From a virus (lineage: Duplodnaviria > Caudoviricetes), in the IMG/VR virus record IMGVR_UViG_3300024255_001563, positions 136,844 to 200,843 of that record: a stretch of DNA of 64,000 bases; one strand, written 5' to 3'. A program made the translations under genes and the position numbers. Positions 1,927-43,774 of the stretch are shown piece by piece. The notes below the pieces were generated by a model that was not told the origin of the DNA, ran no database searches, and worked only from the letters and a program-made list of their open reading frames with translations. The number at the start of each line of letters is the position of its first letter. Position 1 is the first letter of the stretch.

Positions 1927-1933
1927 TCAACTC

Positions 1934-1962
1934 TTGACATAATTATTAACTGAGTATATAAT
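1934..1962 (+). promoter_or_regulatory. Consensus sigma70 promoter
   Basis: TTGACA (1934-1939), 17 nt spacer, TATAAT (1957-1962), followed by GGAG and the ATG at 1987. Confidence 0.85.
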
Positions 1963-1986
1963 TAATAGTATACTTGGAGATTTCGT

Positions 1987-2334
1987 ATGGATGAAAGATT
2001 AGCAAAAGCATTAGAGTTTTCGAATTACATGACAACTCTAAATAATCAAAAACGCATTATAAGAGAACAATTTTTAGAAGATTGTGTTCATTATATTAAT
2101 GGTGGTAAATTTGCAGTTAACAGAGAATTGATTACATTTTGTCAAACACTTGTAAATAATCAACAACCTACTGCGGTACTCATTGATGATAACGAAACGC
2201 CTATTGAAGTAACAGATTTGAAAAAGTTTCTAGACGACATTCTTGATATTTATTTTACTACAACTAATCAGTATTTAGACAAATACAACGAGATAAAAAC
2301 AAATAGGACAATTGAAGGTTTAATTAACATATGA
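1987..2334 (+). CDS. Hypothetical protein
   Basis: 115-aa ORF with a GGAG RBS; first gene of an overlap-coupled operon. Confidence 0.8.
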   Translation: MDERLAKALEFSNYMTTLNNQKRIIREQFLEDCVHYINGGKFAVNRELITFCQTLVNNQQPTAVLIDDNETPIEVTDLKKFLDDILDIYFTTTNQYLDKYNEIKTNRTIEGLINI

Positions 2335-3185
2335 GTCGCGGCGTACTTTTATTTGCGCAAAACAATCATACTATTGACTATATTAAACAAGCACTATTTT
2401 GCGCAAAGAAAATTAAAAAACATTTAGGACTATCAGTAACTATTGCTACAGATACGCCTAAGTACCTTTATGAAAAATATCCATACTATTCTAAATATAT
2501 TGATAATGTAATAAATTTAGATTGGGAAGAATGTTCGCAAAAGCGTGTCTATCAAGACGGTACTATGAGTAACAGAAACTTAGAGTGGAGAAATCACAAT
2601 AGAACAACAGTGTATGACATTACGCCATACGACGAAACTATTGTAATGGACACTGACTTTATAATAGGCAATAATCAGTTGTTGCATACATTTGACACTG
2701 CTGAAGATTTTTTAATTGTTAAAGATATTACAGATGTTAACCCGGAAAGAAATACTTCATTTAATAAAATTAGTGATAGAAGTATTGACATGTACTGGGC
2801 AACATTATTTTATTTTAAAAAAACAGAACAAACAGAATTATTTTTTAATTTAGTTACACACATTAAAGAAAATTGGTTGTATTATAGATTAGTATATCAG
2901 ATACCTGATAAGATGTACAGAAACGATTTTAGTTTTAGTATTGCTATACACCTTATGAATGGAAATCAAAAAACAAACTGGCCAAAACAGCCGCCAGGCA
3001 ATCTTTGGTTTACTACTGATATGGATGTCTTAATAAAAATGGAAGACGAAGATTATGTGTTTCTATTAGACAAAAAAGACTGGAAAGGACATTATATTGC
3101 TGCATCTGTAAAGGATGCTAGTATACATATTATGAACAAGTTTAGTCTTGATAGAGCAATTAGTGAGGTGTTAAAAAATGAGTAA
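2331..3185 (+). CDS. GT-A fold glycosyltransferase (GT8-like)
   Basis: TPYDETIVMDTDF DxD motif, MYWATLFYFKK, RNDFSFSIA, HIMNK; paralog of the next ORF. Confidence 0.7.
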   Translation: MSRGVLLFAQNNHTIDYIKQALFCAKKIKKHLGLSVTIATDTPKYLYEKYPYYSKYIDNVINLDWEECSQKRVYQDGTMSNRNLEWRNHNRTTVYDITPYDETIVMDTDFIIGNNQLLHTFDTAEDFLIVKDITDVNPERNTSFNKISDRSIDMYWATLFYFKKTEQTELFFNLVTHIKENWLYYRLVYQIPDKMYRNDFSFSIAIHLMNGNQKTNWPKQPPGNLWFTTDMDVLIKMEDEDYVFLLDKKDWKGHYIAASVKDASIHIMNKFSLDRAISEVLKNE

Positions 3186-4017
3186 AGGATTTTGTTTACT
3201 TGCACAAAACAATAGCACAACAGATTATGTTCGCCAGGCATATGCTCTCGCCTTAAGTTTACACAAGTACAATCGTAATCAAAAAATTAGTCTTATTACA
3301 AATGACACAATTCCAAAAGAATGGCAAAAAGTGTTTGATCAGATTATTCCGATTCCGTGGACAGATAGTGCAGAAACTAGTAACTGGAAAATAGAAAATC
3401 GTTGGAAAGTTTATCATGCTAGTCCGTACGAGCAAACGATTGTATTGGAAGCAGACATGCTTATACTAAGTGACATAACGCACTGGTGGAAAGAGCTAGA
3501 TAAGTATGAATTGTTTTTTACTAGCAATGTACAAACGTATAGACAAGAAACAGTAACTTCTCGGTATTATAGAAAAACATTTGATGCTAATAACCTTCCT
3601 AATCTATATAGCGCATTACATTATTTTAAAAAAGGCAATACTGCAAAAGAATTCTATACACTACTAGAGATTATAGTTAATAACTGGGAATTATTTTACA
3701 GTAAATATGCAAAAGAGCGTTATCAAAAATGGTGCAGTATCGATTTGTGTGCAGCAATTGCTAGTAAAATTTTAGGCAATGAAAAACAAATAACAAATGC
3801 AGATAGTTATATAACGTTTACCCACATGAAGACGCATACACAAGCTTGGCAATATGTTCCTGAACAATGGACTAATGTAATAGGAAAGTACTATCGAAAT
3901 GATGGAAGTTTAGTGTTAGGTAATTTTGCACAAACCGGAATACTTCATTACGTAGAAGACAATTTTTTAACAGATAAAATAATAGAGAAATTAAAAGATG
4001 CAAAAGTATTATCTTAA
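3178..4017 (+). CDS. GT-A fold glycosyltransferase (GT8-like)
   Basis: SPYEQTIVLEADML (ExD variant of DxD), LYSALHYFKK, GILHY. Confidence 0.68.
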   Translation: MSKGFCLLAQNNSTTDYVRQAYALALSLHKYNRNQKISLITNDTIPKEWQKVFDQIIPIPWTDSAETSNWKIENRWKVYHASPYEQTIVLEADMLILSDITHWWKELDKYELFFTSNVQTYRQETVTSRYYRKTFDANNLPNLYSALHYFKKGNTAKEFYTLLEIIVNNWELFYSKYAKERYQKWCSIDLCAAIASKILGNEKQITNADSYITFTHMKTHTQAWQYVPEQWTNVIGKYYRNDGSLVLGNFAQTGILHYVEDNFLTDKIIEKLKDAKVLS

Positions 4018-4564
4018 CTTTAGAGAAGACGGTACAATTTTAAAAGTTGGCAATGTACTTGACGAGTCTTCCTTATACATAGAAATAGAAAAATATTTAG
4101 TACAAGATTTTGCAAATTGTAAAAAAGAGTTTAAAGACTATCTTGTAGTCCCAAGCGATTCTGCAGATGCAAACTATGTAATGAAATTTAGGCATACATC
4201 ATTAGAAGACTTTGATGTTGACAGAAGTATTTTACAATTGTCTAAAACTCTTATTAGCGAAAGACTAAACTTTATTATTCTACAAGACCCTAGAAACGGA
4301 GTATGGAAAGCAAAATTAACAGACGATTTAAAATCTTTGTTAACAAGCACATCATATTATAAAGATAAATCGCATACACTATTTGTCACAGACGAAGATG
4401 ATCCTAATGTATTACTTGACACACTAGTTGTTGAGTTTTCTGAATTGCTTTATAAAGACGAGTGCATAATAAAAAATACTAATAAAGAGGTTGCTCAGAG
4501 GACTGATGTGAGTGTATACTGTGGTAAGGTCTTTGAAAATTATAGTCATATTATGGAGAACTAA
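3998..4564 (+). CDS. Hypothetical protein
   Basis: 188-aa ORF overlapping both neighbours; no motif recognised. Confidence 0.75.
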   Translation: MQKYYLNFREDGTILKVGNVLDESSLYIEIEKYLVQDFANCKKEFKDYLVVPSDSADANYVMKFRHTSLEDFDVDRSILQLSKTLISERLNFIILQDPRNGVWKAKLTDDLKSLLTSTSYYKDKSHTLFVTDEDDPNVLLDTLVVEFSELLYKDECIIKNTNKEVAQRTDVSVYCGKVFENYSHIMEN

Positions 4565-5463
4565 TGCCTAATAAAATTAAAATAATTGATCAAGATATTA
4601 TCTTTCTTAGTTACGACGAGCCTAACGCAGAAAAAAATTATGCAGACTTGTGTAGTAAAGTACCGTGGGCAAAACGTGTGCATGGTGTACACGGCAGTGA
4701 TGCAGCTCACAAAGCTTGTGCAGATTTAAGTGAAACAGAATACTTTGTTACTGTAGATGCAGATAATATTGTTGATCCAGAGTTTTTAAATCAAGTAGTT
4801 GATTACGAATCGTTAGGGCTGTCAGCAGACCATGTGTTTAGTTGGTGCGGTAAGTTACATGTTAACGGACTAATGTACGGCAACGGCGGATTAAAAATGT
4901 GGACACGTAAGTTTGTACACAATATGAAGACACATGAACATTCAGAAGACGGCGACGAACGCGGCAAAGTAGAATTTTGCTTTGACGACAAGTACTATCA
5001 GTTCAACGAAAACTTTAGTGTATCCTACACAAACGAAACACCTTGGCAAGCCTGGCGAGCTGGATTTAGAGAAGGTGTTAAGATGAGTTTGGATCAAGGT
5101 GCTAAAGTAGAAGACTTGCGTAAAGTATGGTGGCAAAACTATGATAGGCTTTTAATATGGAGTCAAGTAGGTGCTGATGTTAAAAATGGTATATGGAGTA
5201 TACTAGGCGCACGACAAGGTTGTTATCTAACAAACTGTACACCATGGGACTATGCTAACGTGCGTGACTTTGAATGGCTAAACAACTTTTGGGAAACAGA
5301 AGTAAAAGATGTTGATCCAAAAGAAGAAGCAGAACGTTTAGGTTTAGAAATACTTAAAGGTACCGGAGTTGATATTTCTACTAAACCTTTAGACGCAGAA
5401 CAAAGCAAATTTTTTAAACAAGTCTATCAAAATAGTGCAAGGATACTAAGAAGAGCAAAATGA
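4564..5463 (+). CDS. GT-A-like glycosyltransferase
   Basis: IIFLSYDEPNA...RVHGVHG...FVTVDADN (DxD) ...YGNGGLK; paralog of the C-terminal domain of 13755..15689. Confidence 0.65.
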   Translation: MPNKIKIIDQDIIFLSYDEPNAEKNYADLCSKVPWAKRVHGVHGSDAAHKACADLSETEYFVTVDADNIVDPEFLNQVVDYESLGLSADHVFSWCGKLHVNGLMYGNGGLKMWTRKFVHNMKTHEHSEDGDERGKVEFCFDDKYYQFNENFSVSYTNETPWQAWRAGFREGVKMSLDQGAKVEDLRKVWWQNYDRLLIWSQVGADVKNGIWSILGARQGCYLTNCTPWDYANVRDFEWLNNFWETEVKDVDPKEEAERLGLEILKGTGVDISTKPLDAEQSKFFKQVYQNSARILRRAK

Positions 5464-5957
5464 ATTTAAATGTAAAAAAATTTAAAGCGTCAATTGACAA
5501 CTTTTTTGGCTGGGTAAAGAAAACAGAACTAGTAGAGCTAGATGATATTGATGTAACAGAAGATCCAGTACGTCCAGAGCTTGATGTAGAATGGCGTACT
5601 AGTTATGGACGTAAGATATACGGACTAAAGCACGAAAATGAAATTGAAGGTATTATCTGCATTGCATATACTAATGATGTACCTAAAAGTGTAAAAGAGT
5701 TAGACTTAATGAGTCAAAATGCTCATTTTAAAAATGATGTTAATACGGCAGTTGCTTATACAGTATGGAGTCGTAAGCGTGGCGCTGGTAAAGAGATAAT
5801 ACACAAAATAGGCGACTTAATGAAGTCTCGTGATGATATTGAAACACTAGTAACCCTATCACCGTTAACGCCAATGGCAACACACTTTCACATACGTAAT
5901 GGTGCAAAACAAATTGCTATTAGCAATACAACACAGAATTTTAAATATACATTATGA
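5460..5957 (+). CDS. GNAT-fold protein resembling the malonyl-CoA decarboxylase catalytic domain
   Basis: TAVAYTVWS..RGAGKEII...ETLVTLSP resembles the MCD pattern AIFYSIS...G.GN.LIK...F.TLSP. Confidence 0.45.
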   Translation: MNLNVKKFKASIDNFFGWVKKTELVELDDIDVTEDPVRPELDVEWRTSYGRKIYGLKHENEIEGIICIAYTNDVPKSVKELDLMSQNAHFKNDVNTAVAYTVWSRKRGAGKEIIHKIGDLMKSRDDIETLVTLSPLTPMATHFHIRNGAKQIAISNTTQNFKYTL

Positions 5958-7336
5958 GTAATGAACAGCGTATACAAGTACTAGAAGAAAAACGTGAAAA
6001 GATAAACAATGTAAGTTGTTCATTCTGTACGGCTAAATGGTTACAAACTACGCTACTATTACAAAACGGTTACAATCACAGTTGTCATCATCCTGCTCCA
6101 CATAAGATTCCGTTGCACGAAATTGAAGCAAATCCAGCGGCACTACACAACAGTAAGTTTAAAAAAGAACAACGTGCTAAGATGCTTAAAGGTGAGCGTC
6201 CTAAGGAGTGCGGATACTGTTGGAAAATTGAAGACTTAGATAAAAACTATTTTAGTGATAGACATTATAAAACAAGTGACTCTTGGGCCTGGGATAGATT
6301 TGAAGATATTGCTAAAAGCAATCCACAAGACGATGTGTACCCAAGTTACTTAGAAGTATCATTTAGTAATGCTTGTAACTTTGCTTGTGCATACTGTTCA
6401 CCTGAGATTAGTAGCAAGTGGATGGAAGACGTAAAGCAACACGGAGAATATCCAACCAAGCACGGTTCGCATAATCTAGACTATTTAAAAGAGTCTGGTA
6501 AGATGCCAATACCTAATAGAGAACATAATCCTTATGTAGAAGCATTTTGGAAATGGTTTCCTGATGCATTACCGCATTTAAAAGTGTTGCGTATCACAGG
6601 CGGCGAGCCTACTATGTCAAAAGATACCTGGAAGCTTCTAGATTATCTAATAGAAAATCCACGCAAAGGTTTAGACATTTCCATTAATACAAACGGATGT
6701 GTAGAAGATAAACTAATTGACAAACTAATTTTAAAAGTTAACAAACTTGCAAAAGTAGGAGTTAAAGTTGACATATACACTAGTCTTGAAAGCACAGGCC
6801 GCCAGGCGGAATATGCTAGAGACGGATTAGTATACTATGATTGGGTTAAAAACATAGAGCGTTTGCTTTCTGAAACAAAAAGCACAGTTGCAATTATGAC
6901 AACAATTAACATTCTTAGCTTGCCTACATTCGTCGACTTTATTATGACGGTAATGGATTTGCGTAAACTTTATAATACTAGTTTTGAGTGTAATAGAGTG
7001 CCGTTGAGTATTAATATTATGCATTGGCCTCCGCATCTTCAATGTACTTTGCTCGATAAAGAACAACGTGTAAAGACTGCTAACACTATTGAAACACTTT
7101 GCAAAAGTTGGTTAAAATATTATACTAAAGAAAAGTATGCTAGAATATATTTAGAAGAGTTTGATCAAATACAAAGATTTTGTGATTATTTAAGAACCTC
7201 AGAACCAACAGTGGAACACAGAGAAGACTTTGTAAGATACATACAAGCGTACGACAAAAGAAGAAATAAAGATTTTGCAGAAATATTTCCACAGTATACA
7301 CATTTATTAGAGGAATGGAATGCCAAAGAAGACTGA
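5954..7336 (+). CDS. Radical SAM enzyme with N-terminal Cys-rich SPASM/twitch-like domain
   Basis: CNFACAYC, ITGGEP, INTNG; N-terminal FCTAKW..CHH..ECGYCW. Confidence 0.9.
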   Translation: MSNEQRIQVLEEKREKINNVSCSFCTAKWLQTTLLLQNGYNHSCHHPAPHKIPLHEIEANPAALHNSKFKKEQRAKMLKGERPKECGYCWKIEDLDKNYFSDRHYKTSDSWAWDRFEDIAKSNPQDDVYPSYLEVSFSNACNFACAYCSPEISSKWMEDVKQHGEYPTKHGSHNLDYLKESGKMPIPNREHNPYVEAFWKWFPDALPHLKVLRITGGEPTMSKDTWKLLDYLIENPRKGLDISINTNGCVEDKLIDKLILKVNKLAKVGVKVDIYTSLESTGRQAEYARDGLVYYDWVKNIERLLSETKSTVAIMTTINILSLPTFVDFIMTVMDLRKLYNTSFECNRVPLSINIMHWPPHLQCTLLDKEQRVKTANTIETLCKSWLKYYTKEKYARIYLEEFDQIQRFCDYLRTSEPTVEHREDFVRYIQAYDKRRNKDFAEIFPQYTHLLEEWNAKED

Positions 7337-8768
7337 TGAAACGTTACAACAGTATCGTGATAGAGTATTAGACAATAAAAGTAAGAGTTTCTGCGGAGCC
7401 AAGTGGTTTAACGCTACTACCTGGCTTGGTAGTGGTACAACTGCTAGTTGTCATCACCCGCCTGCACATAAAATTCCATTAGTAGAAGTAGAAGCAGACT
7501 ACACTGCTATTCATAATACCAAGCATAAAAAAGAAATGCGCCGCCAAATGCAGACAGGTGAACGCCCAGCTGAGTGCGAGTATTGTTGGAAAATGGAAGA
7601 TATGAAAAAGGATGCTGTCAGTGACAGAACCTTTAAAAGCATTATCTATTCTGATGAAGAGTTACAACGTGCATATGATATGGATCATCATGAGAATGTT
7701 AATCTAAAAACATTTGAGATTGCTTTTGATAGAACGTGTAACTTAGCATGTAGTTATTGCAATGCAAGTTTCTCAACTACGTGGGCTAAAGATATTAAAA
7801 AGAATGGCGAGTACACAAACTTAGTAAGTGATGGCGCTGGTGCATTTAGACAAGACGGCAGTTGGACACAACCTTACAAAGATGATGACGATAATCCTTA
7901 CATTCAAGCGTTTTGGAAATGGTGGGATAATGGTTTAGCAGACAGTTTAGAGGAACTGCGTATCACTGGCGGCGAACCTTTAATGAGCGGAAACACTTGG
8001 AAGTTGTTTGATTGGTTTAATAAGCAAGATTCAGATATGCGTTTTGCAATTAATAGCAATCTAATTGCTAAAGATGCTATTATAGACAAGCTAATTGAGA
8101 AAACACAAGGTATGAATCACTTTGAGTTGTATACTAGTTGTGAAGCAGTAGGTGCTCAAGCAGATTATATTCGTGACGGACTAGATTATGACGAATGGAC
8201 TAAAAATATTAAACGTATACTAACAGAAGCAAATACTAAAGGCGTACACATTATGATGACTATTAACAGTCTTTGCTTGTTTAGTATTACAGAATTCTTA
8301 GATGATGTTTACAAACTAAAAGAGCTCACACAAAGTAGAACGCCAACTGTAAGTTTAAACTTATTACGCTTTCCGAGTTTTCAATCACCGCTGGCATTGC
8401 CTAATCATATTAAGGATCATTGCCATAATAAATTGTCAACATGGTATGAAGCTAACAAAGACAAGCCGGGCTGGAGTGAGTTTGAAAAAGCAAGTATTGA
8501 ACGTTTAATAGATTACTTGGTAACTGTAGATGCTCCGCATAGACGTACAAGTAACCCTACTACACTATGGCGTGATTTTAAAACATTCTATGCACAGTAT
8601 GATGTACGTAGAAACAAAAGCCTAAGTGTATTTCCTAAAATACTAACAGACTGGGTCGATAGTATTCCAGATACTGATGCAAGCATTATGGAACTTGCAG
8701 AAAAAGAAGGTTGGATATTAAAACCTGATAATAAAAACATAGAAATACCTTTGGCAACGTATGACTGA
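7320..8768 (+). CDS. Radical SAM enzyme with N-terminal Cys-rich domain, paralog of 5954..7336
   Basis: CNLACSYC, ITGGEP, INSN; N-terminal FCGAKW..CHH..ECEYCW. Confidence 0.9.
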   Translation: MPKKTDETLQQYRDRVLDNKSKSFCGAKWFNATTWLGSGTTASCHHPPAHKIPLVEVEADYTAIHNTKHKKEMRRQMQTGERPAECEYCWKMEDMKKDAVSDRTFKSIIYSDEELQRAYDMDHHENVNLKTFEIAFDRTCNLACSYCNASFSTTWAKDIKKNGEYTNLVSDGAGAFRQDGSWTQPYKDDDDNPYIQAFWKWWDNGLADSLEELRITGGEPLMSGNTWKLFDWFNKQDSDMRFAINSNLIAKDAIIDKLIEKTQGMNHFELYTSCEAVGAQADYIRDGLDYDEWTKNIKRILTEANTKGVHIMMTINSLCLFSITEFLDDVYKLKELTQSRTPTVSLNLLRFPSFQSPLALPNHIKDHCHNKLSTWYEANKDKPGWSEFEKASIERLIDYLVTVDAPHRRTSNPTTLWRDFKTFYAQYDVRRNKSLSVFPKILTDWVDSIPDTDASIMELAEKEGWILKPDNKNIEIPLATYD

Positions 8769-10071
8769 TAAAATTGGACCTTACTTTTGCACAGCACCCT
8801 GGACACATACTTACGTTAGCCCGCAAGGCGAGCGTAGGTTGTGTTGTGCTAGTAGAGAAGATGCAAGTTTTCAAAAGCAGTATATAGATGCAGGTGATAA
8901 AGACAACACTGAATTTGATCCAATAACACTCGAAGAACATTGGAACAGCGATTATATGAAAGATATTCGTAAGCGTATGTTAGCCGGAGAAAAACTAAGC
9001 CAGTGCGATGTGTGTAATAATCAAGTATTAAATTTACATACATACAAAAACTATTTTACTAATACACTATTTCCGCACAAAGTCGAAGACATAATAGCTA
9101 GTACAAAAGAAGACGGCTACACAACTATGCAACCAATTAGTTTTGATTATCGTATAAGCAATCTTTGTAATTTTAAATGTCGCATGTGCGGTGAACAACT
9201 TAGTTCAAGTTGGGAAACTGAAAAGATTAAACATAATGTAGTTAACTACAAACGTGAAAAATGGATGCAACCAGACACACGAAAGAAGATTGCTACATTT
9301 CAAAAAGAAGTTCTCGAAACAGAACTACAAACAGCAGTTGACAAAGGCATTGTAGAGGAGTTATACTGGGTAGGCGGCGAGCCACTTATGTATGATATAC
9401 ATTGGCGTATTATGCAACAGCTAGTAGACGAAGAAAAAAGCCAAGACGTAGTTGTACGTTATAATACAAACTTGAGCAGAACACACTACAAGAATTATAA
9501 ACTGTACGACATGCTAGATAACTTCAAACGTGTTAACCTTTGTGCTAGTATAGACGGGGTAGGCGAAGTCGGCGAATACATTAGAACAGGACTCAAATGG
9601 GACGAGTGGCTACAAAACTTCAAAGATGGCATGTTTCTTATCAATAAGTATGGAGACGATGCATTAGTATTTGATGTTACACTAACAACTCCGGGATTGT
9701 TTGATTTGAAACGTATGTTTGATGTAGTTACAGAATTAGATGTTAAGAGTTACTTTAAAATTACATTTGCATTTGACCCTAGTGTTCTAATGAGTCCTAT
9801 GTGTTTGCCAAGAGAAGTATTAGATGAGCAAATACACAAACTACTAGACTACATTAAGCCTAGAGTTACACACAAAACTCGTGTGTACCAAGAAACATTA
9901 GAAAACATGCTTGAACGCAAAACGTTTGAAGAAGAATACACTGACTATAAAGATGGTTGGAGACGAGGTAAAAAGAATATAATGTTTATAGAAAGCATCA
10001 GAACGCAAGACGTTACATTTAGAGACACTCTTAGTGACGCAGGTAAAGAATGGTGGGATAGCATTGAGTAA
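8761..10071 (+). CDS. Radical SAM enzyme with N-terminal SPASM/twitch-like domain
   Basis: CNFKCRMC, VGGEP, YNTN, ASIDG; N-terminal FCTAPW..LCC..QCDVC. Confidence 0.9.
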   Translation: MTDKIGPYFCTAPWTHTYVSPQGERRLCCASREDASFQKQYIDAGDKDNTEFDPITLEEHWNSDYMKDIRKRMLAGEKLSQCDVCNNQVLNLHTYKNYFTNTLFPHKVEDIIASTKEDGYTTMQPISFDYRISNLCNFKCRMCGEQLSSSWETEKIKHNVVNYKREKWMQPDTRKKIATFQKEVLETELQTAVDKGIVEELYWVGGEPLMYDIHWRIMQQLVDEEKSQDVVVRYNTNLSRTHYKNYKLYDMLDNFKRVNLCASIDGVGEVGEYIRTGLKWDEWLQNFKDGMFLINKYGDDALVFDVTLTTPGLFDLKRMFDVVTELDVKSYFKITFAFDPSVLMSPMCLPREVLDEQIHKLLDYIKPRVTHKTRVYQETLENMLERKTFEEEYTDYKDGWRRGKKNIMFIESIRTQDVTFRDTLSDAGKEWWDSIE

Positions 10072-13738: not shown

Positions 13739-13754
13739 GTTTATAATATACATA

Positions 13755-19161: not shown

Positions 19162-19170
19162 GTAGATATA

Positions 19171-26370: not shown

Positions 26371-26374
26371 ATCG

Positions 26375-26405: not shown

Positions 26406-26410
26406 TTTCT

Positions 26411-31225: not shown

Positions 31226-31226
31226 T

Positions 31227-32270: not shown

Positions 32271-32276
32271 CAATAA

Positions 32277-32291
32277 TATTTATGATAAATT
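32277..32291. promoter_or_regulatory. Divergent late-promoter-like motifs
   Basis: Minus-strand TAAATA at 32277-32282 lies 6 nt before ATG 32270; the plus strand has an imperfect TAAATT at 32286-32291. Confidence 0.4.
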
Positions 32292-32310
32292 ATATTAACG
32301 GCGGACACTT

Positions 32311-32997
32311 ATGAAGTATTACTATTATTACAACGATGTTCCGGGAGAAGGCTTGTCTAGAAATAATCTAATCTATACAAGTTTAATGTCGGAAGATAAC
32401 ACTACATTTGTACAATGGTATCATAATGATACCACGTATCATGCTGGACAAAATCAAGTAATTGATCCTGCACTGATGCAAGAAAAATTTGAAAGAGAAA
32501 TTAAGTATCTAACATTAATGTACAAAAAGTTTCCTCAACATGTTCCGGAAATAAAAGATATTGACTACAACGAAAAGAAAATTTATTTACTTGTAGACGG
32601 AAAAGATTTTTGGAACAGAGCAAACTGTACAACAAAAAATTACGATAGCGTTTTACCTGACTGGCAAGAACAAATTAAAGAAATAGTATCGGCGCACAGA
32701 AGTTTAGGACTATGGAAATACAGTATGCATCCTAGTAGTTTCTTTGTAGTAGGCGAAAAATTAAAAAGTATTAATTACTTCTTTACATACGAAGCAAAAG
32801 AAAGTAATATAAGCATACGCGATGTAGAAAGTCATATTTACAGTACTCGTCAAGAAGAACTTAAAAAATATCTAACTCCATTAGGTATAGATTGGAATAC
32901 CCCGCAGTCTTGGGAAATATTAAACACATTGTGTTGGGAAAGTTTTAGAACTAATTATCCTAACAATTTTATTGAGGATGTTAAATGTATAAATTAG
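32311..32997 (+). CDS. Kinase-like fold protein, probable pseudokinase
   Basis: FEREIKYL..PEIKDIDY..KKIYL; KYSMHPSSFF occupies the HxDxHPxN position; paralog of the 27078 N-domain. Confidence 0.5.
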   Translation: MKYYYYYNDVPGEGLSRNNLIYTSLMSEDNTTFVQWYHNDTTYHAGQNQVIDPALMQEKFEREIKYLTLMYKKFPQHVPEIKDIDYNEKKIYLLVDGKDFWNRANCTTKNYDSVLPDWQEQIKEIVSAHRSLGLWKYSMHPSSFFVVGEKLKSINYFFTYEAKESNISIRDVESHIYSTRQEELKKYLTPLGIDWNTPQSWEILNTLCWESFRTNYPNNFIEDVKCIN

Positions 32998-33548
32998 TAC
33001 CGTTCGATAAAACGCTTGACTTACAAGAGTTTTATAAAGAAGCACAAAAACGAGGCCATTTAAACAACGCCAGTCAGCAAGCAATGGTTGATTGTTTTCG
33101 CAACGAAGAAAAATCTCAAGTATGGATATTATATAAAGACAATCGTGCAATCGGTAGTGTAGCAGCACACACTTTTCCAGAAATGGGACCTAATGCTTAT
33201 AGAATACTAACACGCACTTGTGTGCTTGATGGTGTAATTCCAAACAACGGCAAAGGGCTAGGTACAGGACGTTGGTATATTCAACAGCACCAAAATACTA
33301 CTTGTCAGTTTTATGTTCCAAAAATGATTGAGTGGTGCGGCATTGATAGTAAAATGTATGCTACAAGTAATCAATTAGACGGCGGCAGTCAAAGGAAAGT
33401 ACATAATATCTACTTTCCACTACTTGAAAAACAGGGTGAGTGGGAAAAGTATTCTACTATAGAATACAGAGGGTGTACACAGCAAGTTTGGAAATTTAAT
33501 CCAACTGTGTTTTTAGAAAATTTAAAAAGGTACCCTAAATGGCATTAA
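32985..33548 (+). CDS. GNAT-like protein
   Basis: VWILY..AIGSVAAH..YRILTRTCV..GKGLG pattern. Weak. Confidence 0.4.
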   Translation: MYKLVPFDKTLDLQEFYKEAQKRGHLNNASQQAMVDCFRNEEKSQVWILYKDNRAIGSVAAHTFPEMGPNAYRILTRTCVLDGVIPNNGKGLGTGRWYIQQHQNTTCQFYVPKMIEWCGIDSKMYATSNQLDGGSQRKVHNIYFPLLEKQGEWEKYSTIEYRGCTQQVWKFNPTVFLENLKRYPKWH

Positions 33549-34981
33549 AATTCAAAACATCTCATAACAAGAAAATTGCATGTTGTATTGTAGACAGGCA
33601 CAACGAATTACCATCTACATGGGGAGTATCAATATCAAAAAATATTTCTGATTATATGATACATAGATTTGCTTTGTTTGATTTTGATATCTATATTAGT
33701 ACAGACGAAGACGATTTGTTGCGTACAGTATCTAAAAATGATTTTTATTCTCACGCAGTTGTTGTATCTACAGGTCTTTATTTTGGATTAAGTGATAGAA
33801 TTTTTAATGCTATTGAAGAAAAATGTAAAGAAGATTTTTTTGTAGCAGGACATGTGTTACATAGAGGTTCCGAATCAGGGTTTTTTGCAAATAGTTATTA
33901 TGAGTTACATCATCAGCTATATCTTATAAATTTAAAAGATTATAGAGATATCGGATGTCCGTCTGTAGGACAGCAATCTCTAGACGAAACCCATAAACAA
34001 ATTGAGCCTATTCGAAGTAAGGAATACTTGTTTGATGATCACGAAGTTCCTGTGTGGATAAAACCTGGATCAGTTGAAAAAGAATATAAAGTAAAATTAC
34101 ATGGTTATAATATTATAAGTAAAGGCTTAGAATATGATAAAAAATTTATTGATATAGGTAACAACATTAGAAATAATAAGCAATATTTCTATTATGAATG
34201 GGATCATGTATTTGTAAATCAACTACAGCAAGTTTATTATGATCACTTATTTGTAAACAACTTCTTTGCCAGTTGGAATAGTGATCAGCATAAAACAAAT
34301 TTTAATTTCGAAGGACCTGTTGAGCAATATGTTACAGTAGGTATAGGAGTATACTGGGTTACTAATTTATGCAATTTAGGAATAACAGAAAATACTAAAG
34401 TTATTTTTACTGATATAAACAATAATACATTAGACTTTATGAAAAAGTTAGTCGAAGAATGGGACGGAAATGATTATCATTTATTTTATAAAAATAATCT
34501 TCCTAGACTTCCTGCAGGGTTTGATAAAAACATTGACCAATATATTGATTACACAGAGCAAGAGTGGAATAAGTTTAAAGAACAATACCCAAATTGGTTA
34601 AAACTTTGGAACAAAGTTAAAAACTTAGAGTTTGATTATATTCTAATAGATTATATGGCAAAGTATGATTTAAACTGGCTCGATAATTCTAAAAAGACGT
34701 TTATAAATATAAGTGATGTATTCACACATAGTCCATATACACCTACACAAAGTTTTAAATATCGGGTAGGTTGCGAAAATAGATTAATTAAAAATCTTCA
34801 ACAGTTTAATCCAGATATACATTTACACATGACATCGCGAGCAACTGACGGGTTTGATGATTCGAAACGTATTATGAGCGGTCCTGTTAAGTCGTTTAGT
34901 TTGTCTAACATTAATGATCTATTGCAGCCAACTTGGCATTCAACTACAGACGAATGGCGTGTTCTTAGACCTCTTGTCTAA
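33539..34981 (+). CDS. Hypothetical protein (possible GT-like N-domain and Rossmann/methyltransferase-like C-domain)
   Basis: 480-aa ORF; VIFTDIN and FINISDVF are only suggestive. Confidence 0.5.
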   Translation: MALKFKTSHNKKIACCIVDRHNELPSTWGVSISKNISDYMIHRFALFDFDIYISTDEDDLLRTVSKNDFYSHAVVVSTGLYFGLSDRIFNAIEEKCKEDFFVAGHVLHRGSESGFFANSYYELHHQLYLINLKDYRDIGCPSVGQQSLDETHKQIEPIRSKEYLFDDHEVPVWIKPGSVEKEYKVKLHGYNIISKGLEYDKKFIDIGNNIRNNKQYFYYEWDHVFVNQLQQVYYDHLFVNNFFASWNSDQHKTNFNFEGPVEQYVTVGIGVYWVTNLCNLGITENTKVIFTDINNNTLDFMKKLVEEWDGNDYHLFYKNNLPRLPAGFDKNIDQYIDYTEQEWNKFKEQYPNWLKLWNKVKNLEFDYILIDYMAKYDLNWLDNSKKTFINISDVFTHSPYTPTQSFKYRVGCENRLIKNLQQFNPDIHLHMTSRATDGFDDSKRIMSGPVKSFSLSNINDLLQPTWHSTTDEWRVLRPLV

Positions 34982-35634
34982 ACTCTTATTTCGTGAGTTT
35001 CGTAATGTCCTGTGGTTCCTGTTAATAATGCAGCAGTGTTAATAGCTTCTTTCCATTCATTAGTACTGTCGTGTCTAGCAACAATTAAATGATATCTATC
35101 TTCGTCGCTATGATTATATACAGCATGTTCGTAACTAATGTTCATTGCATAGACTCCACCAGGCTCCATATAAAAAGTTTGCCCATCTCCCCAATGCCAT
35201 AAACATTCCTTTGGATTATTTAACGGTATATTAATATTTTCTAATATTTTGTAATTAGTATCGCTGTGTAATCCAATGAACCCACCAGCTTCGACAAGCA
35301 TAAGTCTTACTCTGCCAAATCTATTACTAGGAAATTTATTCTGTAGCCAATTAATAATTGTCGGACATTCTGTAGCCGCCTTTGTCCAAACAAAATCTTT
35401 TGCGGCTTCGACAGCATTAGTATAACCGTAATCTTGCCAACTTTCGTGACGGTCTTCTGATAATCCGTACAGTGCTAAACTTTTCCAACCTGCATGAGTT
35501 TCGTCATCTCTATGGCTAGTAAACCTATTCTTAAGAGCAACAGCTTCTTTATGCATTTTCTCGTACGGAACAGGTATATCTAGTTTCAAATATTTTGCTT
35601 CTGAAAAATAATAATCTTTATATAAATGTTGCAT
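34978..35634 (-). CDS. Asp/Asn beta-hydroxylase-like Fe(II)/2OG dioxygenase
   Basis: GRVRLMLVEAGGFIGLHSD..NIPL..EHAVYN.SDEDRYHLIV. Start placed at ATG 35634. Confidence 0.78.
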   Translation of the reverse strand: MQHLYKDYYFSEAKYLKLDIPVPYEKMHKEAVALKNRFTSHRDDETHAGWKSLALYGLSEDRHESWQDYGYTNAVEAAKDFVWTKAATECPTIINWLQNKFPSNRFGRVRLMLVEAGGFIGLHSDTNYKILENINIPLNNPKECLWHWGDGQTFYMEPGGVYAMNISYEHAVYNHSDEDRYHLIVARHDSTNEWKEAINTAALLTGTTGHYETHEIRV

Positions 35635-36697
35635 CTGGTAACTTAAAGTTGTTAATCTCAGCAGTTCGAACAAAATCTGTAATTTCTTCAACATATTTTT
35701 GTGCATATTCTTTTTGAAAATAAGGTTGATATGCGCAGTCCTGTAACGTTGAATAGTCATGTTGTACTCGATGACATAGACGATCTTTAATGTCGCCTAG
35801 TCGTCTGTGTAGTGTAATAGAGTTATCAAACAGTAAAAAGTCACCGTCGTTTTTATACCAGTGATCGTATTGATATTTCTCTACAAACAGACCTTTATTA
35901 ATTTCGTCAAATACTTTATTGCTATCTTCTTTGCTCAGTCCTTTAATTCTATGCACAGTATTAATTGAATAATGTAATCCTTTAATGCCACCGGGACTTT
36001 GAATAACCATCGGTATTTCAACATCGTCTTCTGGACACATATTAGCATGCATAACTTCGTCTTGTTCCATCCGTAGTCCAGGATTAATTTTCCCCGGTGT
36101 AAATCTATGCATAAGAATCATTTCGTCTAGTTCGCTTCTAAAACTTTCAGAAACATTTTCATAATAGTCAGTAGTAGTTAAGAACCCAGTAGAACTGCCT
36201 ACAGTATTTTCGCTTGCAAGTAACGCAACACCAGGAGTAAAGGTAAGTGTACCACTTTCGTTTGAATGCCAAAGCAGCTCGCCTTCTGCAAACATGCCTA
36301 AAGGATTTCCGTTTTCGTCACGCTTACCAGTAACCCGCATTACATTTTTCCCGTCAACGCTTGTTTCTTGCATACGTGCAATATTAGTTAAACGTACTTT
36401 ATCAATATCGTCAACTGACGAATCATTAGCAAAAGCCATTCTAATAACTTGACTAAATGTTTTACCTGGATATTTTTTAAGGATGTTATAGCGAATGTTA
36501 TAACGTGTGTCGCCCCACTTAGTACACCAGTCGGACTGATCTTCCCACTTTAAGTTACAATCTCTAATGATAGTAACAAGATTTTGCATATGAATTTTTC
36601 CAATTTCGAGCCATTCTTCATCTGTTAAATTCTCAAAATTAACGCCGTCAATGAACACTCCGTAGTTTCCAAGGCCTGGAATTTTTGATATTTTCAT
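35618..36697 (-). CDS. TauD/TfdA-family dioxygenase
   Basis: LVTIIRD, WHSNES, STGFLT, HWYKNDGDFLLFDN..TLHRR. Start placed at MKISK (36697) after GGAGA. Confidence 0.8.
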   Translation of the reverse strand: MKISKIPGLGNYGVFIDGVNFENLTDEEWLEIGKIHMQNLVTIIRDCNLKWEDQSDWCTKWGDTRYNIRYNILKKYPGKTFSQVIRMAFANDSSVDDIDKVRLTNIARMQETSVDGKNVMRVTGKRDENGNPLGMFAEGELLWHSNESGTLTFTPGVALLASENTVGSSTGFLTTTDYYENVSESFRSELDEMILMHRFTPGKINPGLRMEQDEVMHANMCPEDDVEIPMVIQSPGGIKGLHYSINTVHRIKGLSKEDSNKVFDEINKGLFVEKYQYDHWYKNDGDFLLFDNSITLHRRLGDIKDRLCHRVQHDYSTLQDCAYQPYFQKEYAQKYVEEITDFVRTAEINNFKLPDATFI

Positions 36698-36728
36698 TTT
36701 ATCTCCATTCATTATAAGTCATTCTATA

Positions 36729-36746
36729 TATTTATTAAGGTAAATA
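36729..36746. promoter_or_regulatory. Back-to-back TAAATA late-promoter-like motifs
   Basis: Minus-strand TAAATA at 36729-36734; plus-strand TAAATA at 36741-36746, 5 nt before ATG 36752. Confidence 0.55.
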
Positions 36747-36751
36747 TTTGT

Positions 36752-37618
36752 ATGGACAATCTTGAAATTTATCAACGTAACAAATATCAAATTGCATATA
36801 GACTTTTACTTGTATTCGGTATGATAGGTGCTGGAGCATTCGTTTTTTATAGCATACTTTTAGATTTTTCTAACCAATGGTATTGGTTAATTATTGCGTT
36901 AGTTTATGCAATAACTGTAGAAGAAACTTTTGCACATAGAATATGTGCTCATAATGTTTTTAAAATAAACACTAAATCTTGGACATATAAAACTTTAACA
37001 TGGTTGAATAGTGTAAATCAGTCACACGGGCCTGTAAGATATCTCTGTATGTGGCACCCTGCACATCATATGTATTCTGATCAAGGGAAAGCAGATAATG
37101 TAAACTGGAAAGAATTCTGGTACGGTTCTGCAAGTACATTACCTTTAGAATTTTTATGTGACTTCCAAATACCTAAGCCAGAAAAAGTTATTGATAACGG
37201 ATACAGACAGTGCTCTAATATTATCGATGATCCTTTTACAAGATTTTGCGAAAAGTATTCTTTAATAATTAGTACATGCACTATAGCAGTTCTTATTTTA
37301 GTTGCACCTATAATATTATTTAACGTAATATTTTTAGGAAGATTTATTATGATGTTAGGAATGATGGCAGCTGGAATAGCACATTTAAAAGACTTTCCTT
37401 TAACTTACCGCTTAAAAGATACCAATGACGATTCTAACAACAATTTAATATTACATTATTTGTTCTTAGGAGTGTTCAGTGGCTTACTACAAAATAATCA
37501 TCACAGTTCGCCTAAAGCAATAAATTTAGGTTTTAAATGGTGGGAAGTTGACACTAGCGCACCAATAGCATATATCCTTAAATTTTTAATGGAAGACCGA
37601 CAACCTTCAAACGCATAA
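36752..37618 (+). CDS. Membrane fatty-acid (delta-9-like) desaturase family protein
   Basis: Hydrophobic helices; His boxes HRICAH, HPAHH..SD and QNNHH; terminal KWWEVD. Confidence 0.8.
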   Translation: MDNLEIYQRNKYQIAYRLLLVFGMIGAGAFVFYSILLDFSNQWYWLIIALVYAITVEETFAHRICAHNVFKINTKSWTYKTLTWLNSVNQSHGPVRYLCMWHPAHHMYSDQGKADNVNWKEFWYGSASTLPLEFLCDFQIPKPEKVIDNGYRQCSNIIDDPFTRFCEKYSLIISTCTIAVLILVAPIILFNVIFLGRFIMMLGMMAAGIAHLKDFPLTYRLKDTNDDSNNNLILHYLFLGVFSGLLQNNHHSSPKAINLGFKWWEVDTSAPIAYILKFLMEDRQPSNA

Positions 37619-37645
37619 ATACAATATAAAATTTGGAGTACTCAT

Positions 37646-38569
37646 ATGAAACTTTTAGACACTATTAAAAAACTAATTTATCTTGCACCATGCAGATGCG
37701 GCAGAACTTATTATCATTGTAATATTCAACCTTCAGCTGATAATATAAAATTAACATTTACACCAACTAACAAATATCTTTTTATTGATCCTAGAAGAGA
37801 AGATGAAGAATTTATGCCTGAAAGATTTCATGCATTTGAAAAGGCAGAACATATTGGTATTGCTATAGGTCAAATAGAATTTTTCTTAAAAAGCAAAGGA
37901 ATCGAGTACAGTGTCGACGGAGATTCAGTTGTTGAGTTAGTAATTAATAGTGCTAATATAGATTCAAATGACGATCTAAGCGTATATGCAACACACAAAC
38001 ATGCACATCGAAGCTTTGACATGGATCAAAAAGTTGATGCTAATACACTAGATGTTCTTGAAAACAAGATTGATACATTCCTTAGTTCTTATAACGGACA
38101 TAAAATACTTGTAGACGATCCTGCTGTTGTTAAAAAATTAAGAGCGTTAGCAGTATATTGGGAGTCTTCGGGCGATATGTGCGACGGTGCACCACAAATG
38201 AAAGCTCCACTAATACTAAGTGTTCCTCCAAAAGAATACGATTTAATACATTATTTACATATGGGTAGATTATATGCTGATATTGCTCTTACAGCAATTA
38301 GTGCAGGTTACCAATTTGCATACAGCAATACATTTAATTATCCTGATCCAAGAGTAAAAAGAGTACAAGAACATTTATTTCTCGACTACGATGCATACAC
38401 AGTCGATACAGTTGTACCTAGATCTTTCATGTGTATAGGCAAAGCATTAGATCCTAATAAGCCATATAACTGGGTAGCAGAAGAAAACATATATAACGAC
38501 GACATTCAACCTAGTTGCATACTTGTAACTAAAGAATTTGTACAAGTTAAGGAACTTGAGGTTGTTTGA
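37646..38569 (+). CDS. Nitroreductase-like flavoprotein, tentative
   Basis: HRSFD..KVD..TL and MGRLYADIALTAISAGYQFAY resemble the nitroreductase RRS.R.F and ..L.A...G... segments. TAAATA at 37616-37621 lies upstream. Confidence 0.45.
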   Translation: MKLLDTIKKLIYLAPCRCGRTYYHCNIQPSADNIKLTFTPTNKYLFIDPRREDEEFMPERFHAFEKAEHIGIAIGQIEFFLKSKGIEYSVDGDSVVELVINSANIDSNDDLSVYATHKHAHRSFDMDQKVDANTLDVLENKIDTFLSSYNGHKILVDDPAVVKKLRALAVYWESSGDMCDGAPQMKAPLILSVPPKEYDLIHYLHMGRLYADIALTAISAGYQFAYSNTFNYPDPRVKRVQEHLFLDYDAYTVDTVVPRSFMCIGKALDPNKPYNWVAEENIYNDDIQPSCILVTKEFVQVKELEVV

Positions 38570-38894
38570 AGTAAAAGTTAAATTTCAACGGAACTCTACT
38601 GATCAACGTTGGTGGCACAGTGACGAAGATATTTTTGATTACATCCAAGAAGAATATGTTGACACAGGAAAAATTTTAGAGCAATCGATTATAATATCAG
38701 AAGATATGTATAAAAAGGAACATACTATTGTTTTTGATTGCGAAGAGTCTTTTAACGAATGGCTTACTGACGAAGTCTTAGTGTACGAAAGACAACGTAT
38801 GCGCAGATATCATAATATAAGTAGGATAGCACATTCTATAAACGCTTATGATGTAAAAGTTACGAAAGACTTGTATTCAGTATACGAGCATTAA
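38538..38894 (+). CDS. Hypothetical protein
   Basis: About 110-118 aa acidic ORF; the true start may be a downstream TTG near the upstream stop. Confidence 0.6.
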   Translation: MYKLRNLRLFEVKVKFQRNSTDQRWWHSDEDIFDYIQEEYVDTGKILEQSIIISEDMYKKEHTIVFDCEESFNEWLTDEVLVYERQRMRRYHNISRIAHSINAYDVKVTKDLYSVYEH

Positions 38895-38900
38895 TATACA

Positions 38901-39443
38901 TTATTTTTTAGCAAGCCAATACTTTTTTAATTCTTCTGAAGTATTATCTATGTATAGATACGGAATTTCAACTTTACTTTCTATAAGCCACTTAATAGTA
39001 GTTACTACATCTACAGGGTCTAAGCGCATATAATCTTTATTTGTACTTTTTAAACCTCCCACAGTTATGTGTGTAGTTTTTAAAGTTTCTGAATTTAATA
39101 GTAAACTTAAATCTTTAAGTTCTTTTTTAATCTTGGCCGCCGGCGGATCAATCCAACTCCATTGGTCAAATTCTAATATACTTCCGATATTAAAAATTTT
39201 TCCCTTACTAAGTTTGTTTGCAGCAATCTTTAGTAGTGTAAGTTGTCCGTCTGGTATTAACTGTGAATGATTTATAAACACATCAAACGTGTGAATAATG
39301 GAAGAAAATTTTTCTAAGCCTTCAGGTGATAATAAATCATAACCTGAAGATCTAGAAATAAACTTTGTGTTTGGATAAACTTCTTTAAATTCTTTTGCTA
39401 TACCGTTATCATTAGGATTGCCGGTACACAGTATCCTAAGCAT
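38901..39443 (-). CDS. Short-chain dehydrogenase/reductase-like protein, truncated type
   Basis: ILCTGN..GIAK, DVFINHS, KIFNIGS; the YxxxK motif is not evident. Confidence 0.6.
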   Translation of the reverse strand: MLRILCTGNPNDNGIAKEFKEVYPNTKFISRSSGYDLLSPEGLEKFSSIIHTFDVFINHSQLIPDGQLTLLKIAANKLSKGKIFNIGSILEFDQWSWIDPPAAKIKKELKDLSLLLNSETLKTTHITVGGLKSTNKDYMRLDPVDVVTTIKWLIESKVEIPYLYIDNTSEELKKYWLAKK

Positions 39444-43771: not shown

Positions 43772-43774
43772 GAG

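Follow-up and report, generated by a model that had tools for sequence, protein, structure and literature searches.

Two published reports describe systems close to the one examined here. Zaragoza-Solas et al. 2020 (PMC7029224) described, in pelagimyophages, a hypervariable "host recognition cluster" that includes glycosyltransferases and radical S-adenosylmethionine (SAM) cassettes, and Nishimura et al. 2017 (PMC5332604) listed a marine viral genome of T4-like type (EVG) that has 12 radical SAM genes. The subject of this study is a comparable island of enzyme genes, located at positions 1934-39443 of a 64,000-nucleotide stretch (the window) that forms the last 64 kb of the 200,843-bp linear IMG/VR virus record IMGVR_UViG_3300024255_001563. 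With the host recognition cluster of marine T4-like phages it shares its form, a large non-syntenic island in the structural region following a giant protein and fibers, and its content of fibers, glycosyltransferases, and radical SAM cassettes that vary among close relatives. The two reports list genes only, however, and do not describe the radical SAM family, the conserved core, or the two promoter classes found here. We conclude that the island is one more variant, and an unusually large one, of a recurring system that is known descriptively and is biochemically uncharacterized. What is new is its division into two modules on the basis of promoters, the definition of core genes as opposed to mobile cassettes, and the signs of selection and the island contigs in seawater RNA libraries. 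Tentatively, and with slightly less than an even chance of being right, we read the island as a two-module sugar or glycan tailoring system that acts in the cytoplasm and lies in the hypervariable region after the tail-fiber module.

Judged from its genes, the source is an uncultured T4-like marine jumbo phage. Because CheckV places the record at 57% completeness, the full genome is probably about 350 kb. The best matches of the family-B DNA polymerase (PolB, 58988-61657) are to Atu_ph07-type jumbo phages at 45-49% identity, and the cultured pelagimyophage is not close kin of this phage. Genes 5′ of the window match PHROGs for baseplate, head-tail adaptor, virion-structural, and tail-fiber proteins. 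A megablast search of 50,697 phage records with 48 kb of window sequence as the query gave no matches; among isolates the relatives are distant and are recognized at the protein level only. An earlier reading made without database searches (the sequence-only reading) had taken the DNA to be that of a phage, and the T4-like PolB and the baseplate, adaptor, and fiber families bear this out. It had also described overlapping genes bracketed by fiber loci, and this description holds: the island, ~37-39 kb in length, lies next to tail-fiber genes, with a fiber-module pair following a tail-fiber gene on its left and an Mtd_N fiber on its right, and its genes are tightly packed, with overlapping starts and stops and intergenic gaps of no more than 60 nt. 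There are six strand switches, the GC content is 0.33-0.34 as compared to 0.39 in the flanks, and a single protein, the desaturase-like 36752, is a membrane protein. Coordinates are collected in Table 1, and genes are designated by their first coordinate.

The 13 radical SAM open reading frames (ORFs) that the sequence-only reading had counted as intact were all recovered. Each has a CX3CX2C motif and a match to PF04055, which is above the cut-off for 11 and just below it for 7320 and 11241; GGEP is literal in 10, with variants in the 18073/19171 pair and in 31227. The 200,843-bp record contains no further radical SAM match, and all 13 lie inside the island. They form four groups. Seven (5954, 7320, 8761, 10034, 11241, 20250, and 23578) have an N-terminal twitch domain and belong to the NCBIfam family NF033640, with scores of 305-410 bits over model positions ~1-397 against a curated cut-off of 170; the other six score 18-37 bits and are non-members. 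A trio (15649, 21659, and 22680) has Cys-rich C-termini. The 18073/19171 pair, with 41% mutual identity, has C-terminal SPASM-type Cys residues and a Pfam SPASM match on 19171. The last, 31227, has an HMPTM-type zinc ribbon, and its matches to the Tes/TrsS-type NCBIfam models are far under their cut-offs.

In the N-twitch group, Cys residues C6, C25, C66, and C69 lie upstream of C120/C124/C127 and are invariant in the seven paralogues and in 30 sequences. GGEP is likewise invariant in the tandem N-twitch genes, and the Pfam SPASM match falls on the N-terminal ~110 residues (6-69 in 11241; 31-110 in 20250). This permuted architecture, an N-terminal four-Cys twitch and then CX3CX2C and GGEP, is that of NF033640 (N_Twi_rSAM); the island differs in having seven ancient paralogues in one phage. 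The family itself is without a characterized member, and its accession is cited in none of the literature searched. In many metagenomic relatives (P0001-P0044) two N-twitch modules are fused in one protein of ~816 aa, which suggests that these enzymes may work in pairs. Among cultured phages, the Vibrio phage K566 has 3-4 clustered distant N-twitch homologues (E 1e-10 to 1e-27), and KVP40-type phages have a single copy; the genes of K566 and K567, however, are only 22-26% identical to those of the island, do not lie by fiber genes, and are accompanied by no other island gene.

A fully Cys-ligated twitch cluster goes with an electron-transfer role in BtrN-type enzymes, and the four invariant twitch Cys thus fit oxidative or redox-neutral editing after H-atom abstraction. 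In a fold search with the AlphaFold2 (AF2) model of an N-twitch enzyme (pLDDT 91), anSME and BlsE both gave Z 12.1, BlsE with an rmsd of 3.4 over 216 residues, and SkfB, CteB, SuiB, viperin, and MoaA were within ~1 Z of the top (range Z 10.8-12.1). BtrN was not among the structural matches listed. BtrN and BlsE resemble the island enzymes in having one auxiliary cluster, ligated by four Cys, and in their sugar-enzyme neighborhood; they differ in that their twitch is C-terminal instead of N-terminal and identity is only ~16%, and anSME and the maturases of ribosomally synthesized and post-translationally modified peptides (RiPPs) score equally well. The NCBIfam side-matches of the radical SAM genes are peptide maturases. 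Nishimura et al. linked an Fe-S assembly A-type carrier and IscU to radical-SAM-rich phages (PMC5332604); searches of the 57% of the genome present in the record found neither one.

The sequence-only reading had named at least four GT-A-like proteins, and the same number of island glycosyltransferase genes is predicted here (the two GT8-like genes, 4564, and 13755). A profile of the GT8-like pair (alignment A4) matched glycogenin-1/2 at E 3e-5 over glycogenin residues ~5-117, with D109 (the second Asp of DxD), D199, and H266 invariant; the sequence alignment covers only the N-terminal half, and there was no Pfam GT8 match. For 4564, the family profile retrieved no PDB entry by sequence, and it was the fold search with the AF2 model (pLDDT 91.1) that gave the match: Foldseek probabilities against GT2 structures were 0.9-1.0, at TM scores of only 0.3-0.4, and RmlT, PBCV-1 A64R, ThuS/SunS, TarP, PgaC, and BcsA were matched at probability 1.0. 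This gene has >8000 metagenomic homologues. In 13755 the DxD motif survives in the C-terminal repeat alone. Homologues of 12428 in other phages (Atlas) are fused to methyltransferase or epimerase/dehydratase domains. The smaller enzymes of the sequence-only list came through less uniformly: the PP-loop, pyridoxal phosphate (PLP), GNAT, desaturase, and nitroreductase calls were recovered at a weak or lead level, and the SGNH, methyltransferase, and short-chain dehydrogenase/reductase (SDR) calls stayed marginal, being based on HMM matches below threshold or on motifs recognized by eye.

We compared the island with IMG/VR fragments G001-G003, the NCBI 165-kb contig L005, contigs L029-L031, and other metagenomic contigs. 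Their common layout is a giant protein, several fibers, the island, homologues of 41214, 41821, and 42086, an AAA/VWA pair, a 5′-3′ exonuclease, and the FolE region. In this phage the giant protein is a 5266-aa ORF that precedes the fiber genes 22-6 kb upstream of the window (G000:C1:114709-130509); its homologues are the left synteny anchor in G002 and G003, and its position corresponds to that of VrlC in pelagimyophages. The AAA/VWA pair (42364-44894, minus strand), an AAA (MoxR-like) ATPase and a DUF2201 metallopeptidase/VWA protein, is 52-89% identical in every sampled relative that reaches that region.

Within this layout a core is present in all: the 115-aa gene, the two GT8-like genes (kept in 4/4 relatives), the GT2-like gene, and three types of N-twitch radical SAM gene, those of 5954, 7320, and 11241. 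Its order at the same site (fibers, 115-aa gene, GT8-like pair, GT2-like gene, and 5954- and 7320-type genes) is kept among phages whose fibers are only 33-48% identical. Orthologues are 45-87% identical, as compared to 20-37% for paralogues, and dN/dS values against L005 are 0.04-0.17 with dS saturated (0.06-0.08 for the tandem N-twitch genes); therefore the paralogues are old, distinct, and under selection. The 115-aa gene has orthologues of 45-68% identity in L005, G002, and G001, with a dN/dS of 0.10. Around the core, content changes. The GNAT-fold gene 5460 is absent from L005, the islands of G001 and G003 are 18-19 kb long as compared to 39 kb here and are both without the right half, and L029-L031, with flanks 60-90% identical, keep the Mtd_N fiber with different genes beside it. 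The sequence-only reading had asked whether this is a variable cassette always lying between the same fiber genes; the answer is yes for the fixed site by the fiber module, where there is a conserved core, and no for the right bracket, which in more distant relatives is not a fiber gene.

Neighbors of NF033640-type genes elsewhere point to sugars. All four further islands sampled with such genes contain nucleotide-sugar enzymes; represented there are the UDP-glucose/GDP-mannose dehydrogenase family (PF03721/PF00984), an NAD-dependent epimerase/dehydratase, a DegT aminotransferase, a GFO_IDH oxidoreductase, and a carbamoyltransferase. In a Bdellovibrionales metagenome-assembled genome, a homologue of 38% identity lies directly behind a canonical GT2 gene.

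The main addition of this analysis is that the island appears not to be one unit; its promoter motifs suggest a division into an early-type and a late-type half. Perfect TTGACA-N16-18-TATAAT (sigma-70) sites occur 13 times in the record, as compared to 0.34 expected from 200 first-order Markov simulations (maximum 2). Eight of the 13 are intergenic and 8-214 nt 5′ of a co-oriented gene, most with a spacer of 17 nt. Those in the window are at 1934, 13719, 25952(-), 43771(-), 50238(-), 54561(-), 57038(-), and 62547(-). Outside the island, perfect sites are found ahead of FolE and of other genes in the replication and putative 7-deazaguanine region, and the class as a whole looks like early promoters. 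The GTP cyclohydrolase I gene (FolE, 49464-50147; phrog_2197, E 3e-45) is ~10 kb from the island; a putative 7-deazaguanine DNA-modification module, so labeled in a different sequence-only note, spans 48374-58863, separate from the island. The 1934 promoter is perfect in L005, matches at 10/12 positions in G002, and is not kept in G001; near-consensus sites are found at the place of the 13719 promoter in L005 and G002. In the latter promoter the -10 box ends 6-8 nt from the ATG in both this phage (13741-13757) and L005 (16578-16592), and therefore either the mRNA is leaderless or the true start codon is downstream. The promoter class of the leftward unit 22680-26298 is ambiguous.

A second motif, ATAAATA, has 49 copies on both strands, of which 23 are in the sense orientation and at most 60 nt 5′ of a gene start (~1.4 expected). 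Of ten genes with this heptamer that were tested, seven matched virion structural PHROGs, one weakly a terminase small subunit, and one a tryptophan halogenase; one was unmatched. In the right half of the island the heptamer lies 12 nt from the start of 26411, 13 nt from that of 31227(-), 23 nt from that of 35618(-), and 31 nt from that of 37646. It also precedes both fiber flanks, 33 nt from the start of the first 1-1926 gene and 38 nt 5′ of 39447-40853. The literal T4 late box TATAAATA, considered as the late motif, was not enriched (6 vs 10.8 expected); the shorter ATAAATA is. With the early and late promoters of T4 as the model for timing, the motifs suggest by analogy that the glycosyltransferase/radical SAM half is early and the oxygenase-rich half late, together with the virion genes. 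The single dedicated pathway proposed in the sequence-only reading is not supported, given this division and the absence or reshuffling of the late half even in close relatives. The tryptophan-halogenase-family gene (G000:C1:52861-54390; phrog_2928, E 9e-98), with its ATAAATA late box, is part of a second enzyme island within the fiber region, so that late-expressed tailoring enzymes are a theme in this phage.

In the late-type half, the count of nine oxygenase domains given in the sequence-only reading was matched by nine domains assigned to the 2-His-1-carboxylate type, two of them firmly: 34978(-), with PF05118 at E 5e-16, and 35618(-), a TauD-family protein with PF02668 at E 8e-16, both above the Pfam cut-offs. 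The calls for the remaining seven rest on the HxD...H motif, paralogy, and Atlas features. Gene 26411 has a weak PF05118 match; the four paralogues 28272, 28811, 29317, and 29841(-), each ~175 aa, share HxD...H with the C-terminus of 27078 (alignment A2) and fall with viral AspH/cupin clusters; and 30419(-) has, when read by eye, the motif "EAGG..x..HxD ... WHGG" in common with 34978. A scan of viral contigs with 29317 gave no confirmed relatives, and no usable match came from relaxed searches of Pfam and NCBIfam with 3998, 30419, 32985, 33539, 38538, and 38901. The DesA match of 36752 is far under the family cut-off. In L029 the first two genes of the 32311-34981 set sit directly by the fiber gene.

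The fiber pair on the left lies just 3′ of a 515-aa protein with tail-fiber PHROG matches and has no family match of its own; its orthologues in L005 sit behind a Collar-domain fiber. The N-terminal ~200 residues of the fiber on the right are 62-63% identical in L029/L030 and 38% identical in L031, and its C-terminal part diverges or is replaced in L029-L031, a pattern that is the usual one for a receptor-binding tip. As to a diversity-generating retroelement, the window contains no direct repeat of 40 nt or longer that involves the Mtd_N fiber gene, and only the N-terminal Mtd_N domain matches. The fiber proteins have 0-1 Cys each.

The region recurs in seawater. At least half of the sampled words of 1900-11800 were found in 19 seawater metagenome runs from as many studies, one of which may be the source. 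Contigs >=99% identical to parts of the region were present in three seawater metatranscriptomes. Their depth was uneven, ~22 on the fiber 39447-40853 (the highest), ~12 on 37.3-38.7 kb, and 0-7 elsewhere, as compared to a flat 41 in a DNA run; contig depth is a poor measure, DNA carry-over is possible, and bins that lack RNA contigs (e.g., 24668-25334 in X20) are no sign of silence. The unevenness is compatible with transcription at differing levels, for which it is weak evidence.

Table 1 Features of the island and its flanks in the window
Feature	Position	Strand	Basis or remark
Two paralogous fiber-module proteins	1-894 (cut by window start), 898-1926	+	28% mutual identity; late class
Perfect sigma-70 promoter, TTGACA-N17-TATAAT	1934-1962	+	25 nt 5′ of first island gene
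115-aa first island gene, no function call	1987-2334	+	Orthologues at same position in relatives
Two paralogous GT8-like (GT-A) glycosyltransferases	2331-3185, 3178-4017	+	A4 profile vs glycogenin
188-aa protein, no family match	3998-4564	+	Orthologue found only in L005
Predicted GT-A fold, GT2-like glycosyltransferase, VDADN motif	4564-5463	+	AF2 and Foldseek
GNAT-fold protein (malonyl-CoA decarboxylase C-terminal domain family)	5460-5957	+	PF05292, E 2.5e-5, barely above cut-off
Five tandem N-twitch radical SAM proteins	5954-7336, 7320-8768, 8761-10071, 10034-11251, 11241-12431	+	NF033640
436-aa virus-only protein, possibly GT-B-like	12428-13738	+	Weak GT10 lead
Perfect sigma-70 promoter	13719-13747	+	8 nt 5′ of ATG of 13755 (triple-glycosyltransferase gene)
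644-aa protein, three GT2-like repeats	13755-15689	+	Weak PF00535 match
Radical SAM protein	15649-16659	+	Part of 15649-22696
Methyltransferase-like, marginal	16656-17261	+	E 0.0085, sub-threshold
SGNH-like, marginal	17254-18072	+	E 0.09, sub-threshold
Radical SAM protein	18073-19161	+	Part of 15649-22696
Radical SAM protein, C-terminal SPASM	19171-20253	+	Part of 15649-22696
Radical SAM protein, N-twitch	20250-21662	+	Part of 15649-22696
Radical SAM protein	21659-22696	+	Part of 15649-22696
Radical SAM protein	22680-23636	-	Leftward unit 22680-26298
Radical SAM protein, N-twitch	23578-24843	-	Leftward unit 22680-26298
PP-loop ATPase	24833-25531	-	Weak, lead-level match
PLP-fold protein, start uncertain	25528-26298	-	Weak, lead-level match
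Perfect sigma-70 site, intragenic in PLP-like gene	25952-25924	-	~390 nt 5′ of PP-loop gene
AspH-like oxygenase	26411-27085	+	Weak PF05118; late unit
Two-domain protein, C-terminal cupin/AspH-like	27078-28277	+	HxD...H in A2; late unit
Four AspH/cupin paralogues, ~175 aa	28272-30419	-	Late unit
AspH-like	30419-31225	-	Late unit; motif by eye
Radical SAM protein with HMPTM-type Zn ribbon	31227-32270	-	PF23545 and PF04055
228-aa protein (paralogue of 27078 N-terminus), 187-aa GNAT-like protein, 480-aa protein with no function call	32311-34981	+	
Asp/Asn beta-hydroxylase-family oxygenase	34978-35760	-	PF05118; late unit
TauD-family Fe/2-oxoglutarate oxygenase	35618-36712	-	PF02668; late unit
Membrane di-iron desaturase/hydroxylase-like	36752-37618	+	Three His boxes, three hydrophobic segments; DesA E 2.6e-5
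Nitroreductase-fold protein	37646-38569	+	Atlas structure TM 0.62-0.65 to Acg/nitroreductase clusters
118-aa ORF	38538-38894	+	
Rossmann-like 180-aa protein (SDR call marginal)	38901-39443	-	
Tail-fiber protein, Mtd_N N-terminus, right island border	39447-40853	-	PF18454, E 5e-11; late promoter

Sugar chemistry is the best supported for this island because of the four glycosyltransferase genes, some of them in the conserved core, because of the nucleotide-sugar enzymes in the further NF033640-type islands, and because of the Bdellovibrionales homologue that follows a GT2 gene. Since only one island protein is a membrane protein and a flippase, polymerase, and exporter are lacking, the product would be built in the cytoplasm. 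The island would then form the part of the hypervariable accessory ("host-recognition") region in which enzymes are concentrated, and its two modules would differ in timing. Module A (1987-22696, probably together with the leftward unit 22680-26298) would be served by host-type sigma-70 promoters and combine cytoplasmic GT8-like and GT2-like enzymes, twelve SPASM/twitch radical SAM enzymes (seven of NF033640), and acyl-, methyl-, adenylyl-, and PLP-type small enzymes. Nucleotide-activated sugars would be transferred onto an acceptor, after which H-atom abstraction would modify them at unactivated carbons, with oxidation, epimerization, dehydration, or C-C chemistry as possible outcomes; each ancient radical SAM paralogue would carry out one step, and electrons would pass through the fully Cys-ligated twitch cluster, as they do in BtrN-type dehydrogenases. 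Module B, 26411-39443, would be expressed from late ATAAATA promoters together with the fiber genes. With its nine predicted AspH/cupin/TauD oxygenases, Zn-ribbon radical SAM enzyme, membrane di-iron hydroxylase-like protein, and nitroreductase-fold protein, it would most likely hydroxylate or finish the same conjugate or its acceptor at virion assembly. Observed directly are the gene content, family membership, synteny, variability of the cassettes, purifying selection, motif statistics of the promoters, and near-identical contigs in seawater RNA libraries; the substrate sugar, the order of steps, the timing, and the target in this scheme are all inferred.

As the target we weakly prefer a virion surface protein such as a fiber. 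The sequence-only reading had proposed an elaborate glycan or acyl decoration of the fibers; its sugar or glycan context stands, and the fibers are a candidate target only. Precedents are the glycosylation systems of PBCV-1 (A64R) and of mycobacteriophage virions, which likewise use the virus's own cytoplasmic GT-A enzymes, encoded next to structural genes, A64R being among the top matches of 4564; these systems differ in having no radical SAM enzymes, and the glycosyltransferase half here is early-type. Glycosylation of mycobacteriophage capsids and tails is said to have been reported by Freeman et al. in 2023. We know of no glycosylated virion protein in the phage group considered here.

Several observations weigh against sugar tailoring of this kind. 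The TM scores of the glycosyltransferase fold matches are low (0.3-0.4). The predicted fold of the N-twitch enzymes does not separate sugar from peptide substrates, and a sugar is not favored by it because the peptide enzymes anSME, SkfB, CteB, and SuiB tie with BlsE, viperin, and MoaA. The island is without a clear nucleotide-sugar synthesis gene, such genes being elsewhere in the genome or in the islands of relatives, and no acceptor for sugar transfer was identified. Adjacency to the fibers and the late oxygenases favor a virion protein; the early-type promoters point instead to DNA, to the host surface, or to a free compound and suit a virion target less well. As for the two modules, the first island gene of G001 is preceded by a late-type box instead, the 25952 site is intragenic, the split in timing is based on motifs only, and module B, missing or reshuffled in relatives, may be functionally unrelated to module A.

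Of the alternatives, which include the host-surface, small-molecule, and DNA products listed in the sequence-only reading, the one that survives best, although we consider it unlikely, is remodeling of the host envelope, with lipopolysaccharide (LPS), capsule, or lipids changed, for example, in a way that blocks superinfection or the adsorption of progeny to the debris of lysed cells. GT8 enzymes are typical LPS-type glycosyltransferases, and members of the AspH family include LpxO and OlsC, which hydroxylate lipid A and ornithine lipids. The membrane desaturase/hydroxylase-like 36752, the Tes/HMPTM-type 31227, and the early-type promoters ahead of the glycosyltransferase/radical SAM half agree with such a role; however, the Tes and DesA matches are far under the family cut-offs, and the lipid-type enzymes are in the late half, too late for useful exclusion. 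Pfam families of a surface-polysaccharide locus (initiating transferase, Wzx/Wzy, ABC exporter) were not found in the island proteins, and the island, with its one membrane protein, lacks a flippase, polymerase, ABC exporter, and lipid-carrier transferase. The glycosyltransferases of pelagimyophages have been read in this way (Zaragoza-Solas et al. 2020; PMC7029224).

Quite unlikely is a free small molecule, in which the early half would make a soluble, radical-SAM-tailored pseudo-oligosaccharide or aminoglycoside-like compound for use, for example, against competing phages or microbes. BtrN, AprD4, and BlsE are twitch-type radical SAM precedents from aminoglycoside and nucleoside antibiotic pathways, and BlsE ties for the best structural match. 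The enzymes are cytoplasmic and under early-type promoters, acceptor, carrier, and exporter genes are not evident, and relatives have DegT aminotransferases and TobZ/NodU-family carbamoyltransferases by their radical SAM genes. In a cultured cyanophage, a DegT, amidinotransferase, and radical SAM trio has been named "antibiotic synthesis genes" (PMC12801897). Against this, none of the island genes was recognized as encoding a scaffold synthase such as a sugar-phosphate cyclase, a resistance or export function is not present, and the fixed position next to the fibers would be left without explanation.

Two further alternatives are improbable, and to the same degree. In one, the chemistry would be free of sugar, and radical SAM and AspH-type enzymes would cross-link, epimerize, or hydroxylate structural proteins or a RiPP-like peptide. 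Among the best structural neighbors are anSME, SkfB, CteB, and SuiB, in line with the peptide maturases among the NCBIfam side-matches; the AspH family hydroxylates protein Asp/Asn, and the late oxygenases have the same type of promoter as the fibers. Yet the glycosyltransferase genes, at least four in number, and the nucleotide-sugar genes of relatives would stay unexplained. The gaps of <=60 nt hold no precursor-like small ORF (a distant substrate is possible), no RRE/PqqD domain was detected in Pfam searches of the island proteins, and the scarcity of Cys in the fibers makes thioether or formylglycine chemistry unlikely. In the other, there would be no single product, and independent accessory cassettes would have piled up in a recombination-permissive region. 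The two promoter classes, the six strand switches, the gain and loss of cassettes between close relatives, and the GC content below that of the flanks are what such a history would leave; the core order kept across phages with divergent fibers, the extreme skew of the content to one enzyme superfamily, and the strong purifying selection argue against it.

Least probable is hypermodification of DNA, with the early module decorating a modified base by glycosylation and tailoring, for although the module has the promoter class of the replication and putative 7-deazaguanine genes, FolE is only ~10 kb away, and PP-loop, PLP, and radical SAM enzymes occur in thymidine hypermodification pathways, the island is in the fiber module and not among nucleotide-metabolism genes, its PP-loop protein 24833 is not QueC-like, its GT-A/GT8 folds are to our knowledge not those of the known DNA glucosyltransferases, and a thymidylate-synthase-like hydroxymethylase (PF00303) was not found in the 57% of the genome in the record.

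Thirteen radical SAM genes in one phage represent an extreme investment in oxygen-sensitive, cofactor-hungry chemistry. Seven of them belong to NF033640, the signature family, which has thousands of metagenomic members, occurs in seawater samples of many studies, and is without a known reaction. The early/late split is a concrete, testable prediction and indicates which genes to co-express. If the early half makes a free aminoglycoside-like product, it would be the first phage-encoded complex secondary-metabolite pathway, built around N-terminal-twitch radical SAM enzymes; a free compound or a modification of DNA or the envelope would be new biochemistry either way. If instead the fibers are decorated, host-range determination in abundant ocean phages would gain a further, new level.

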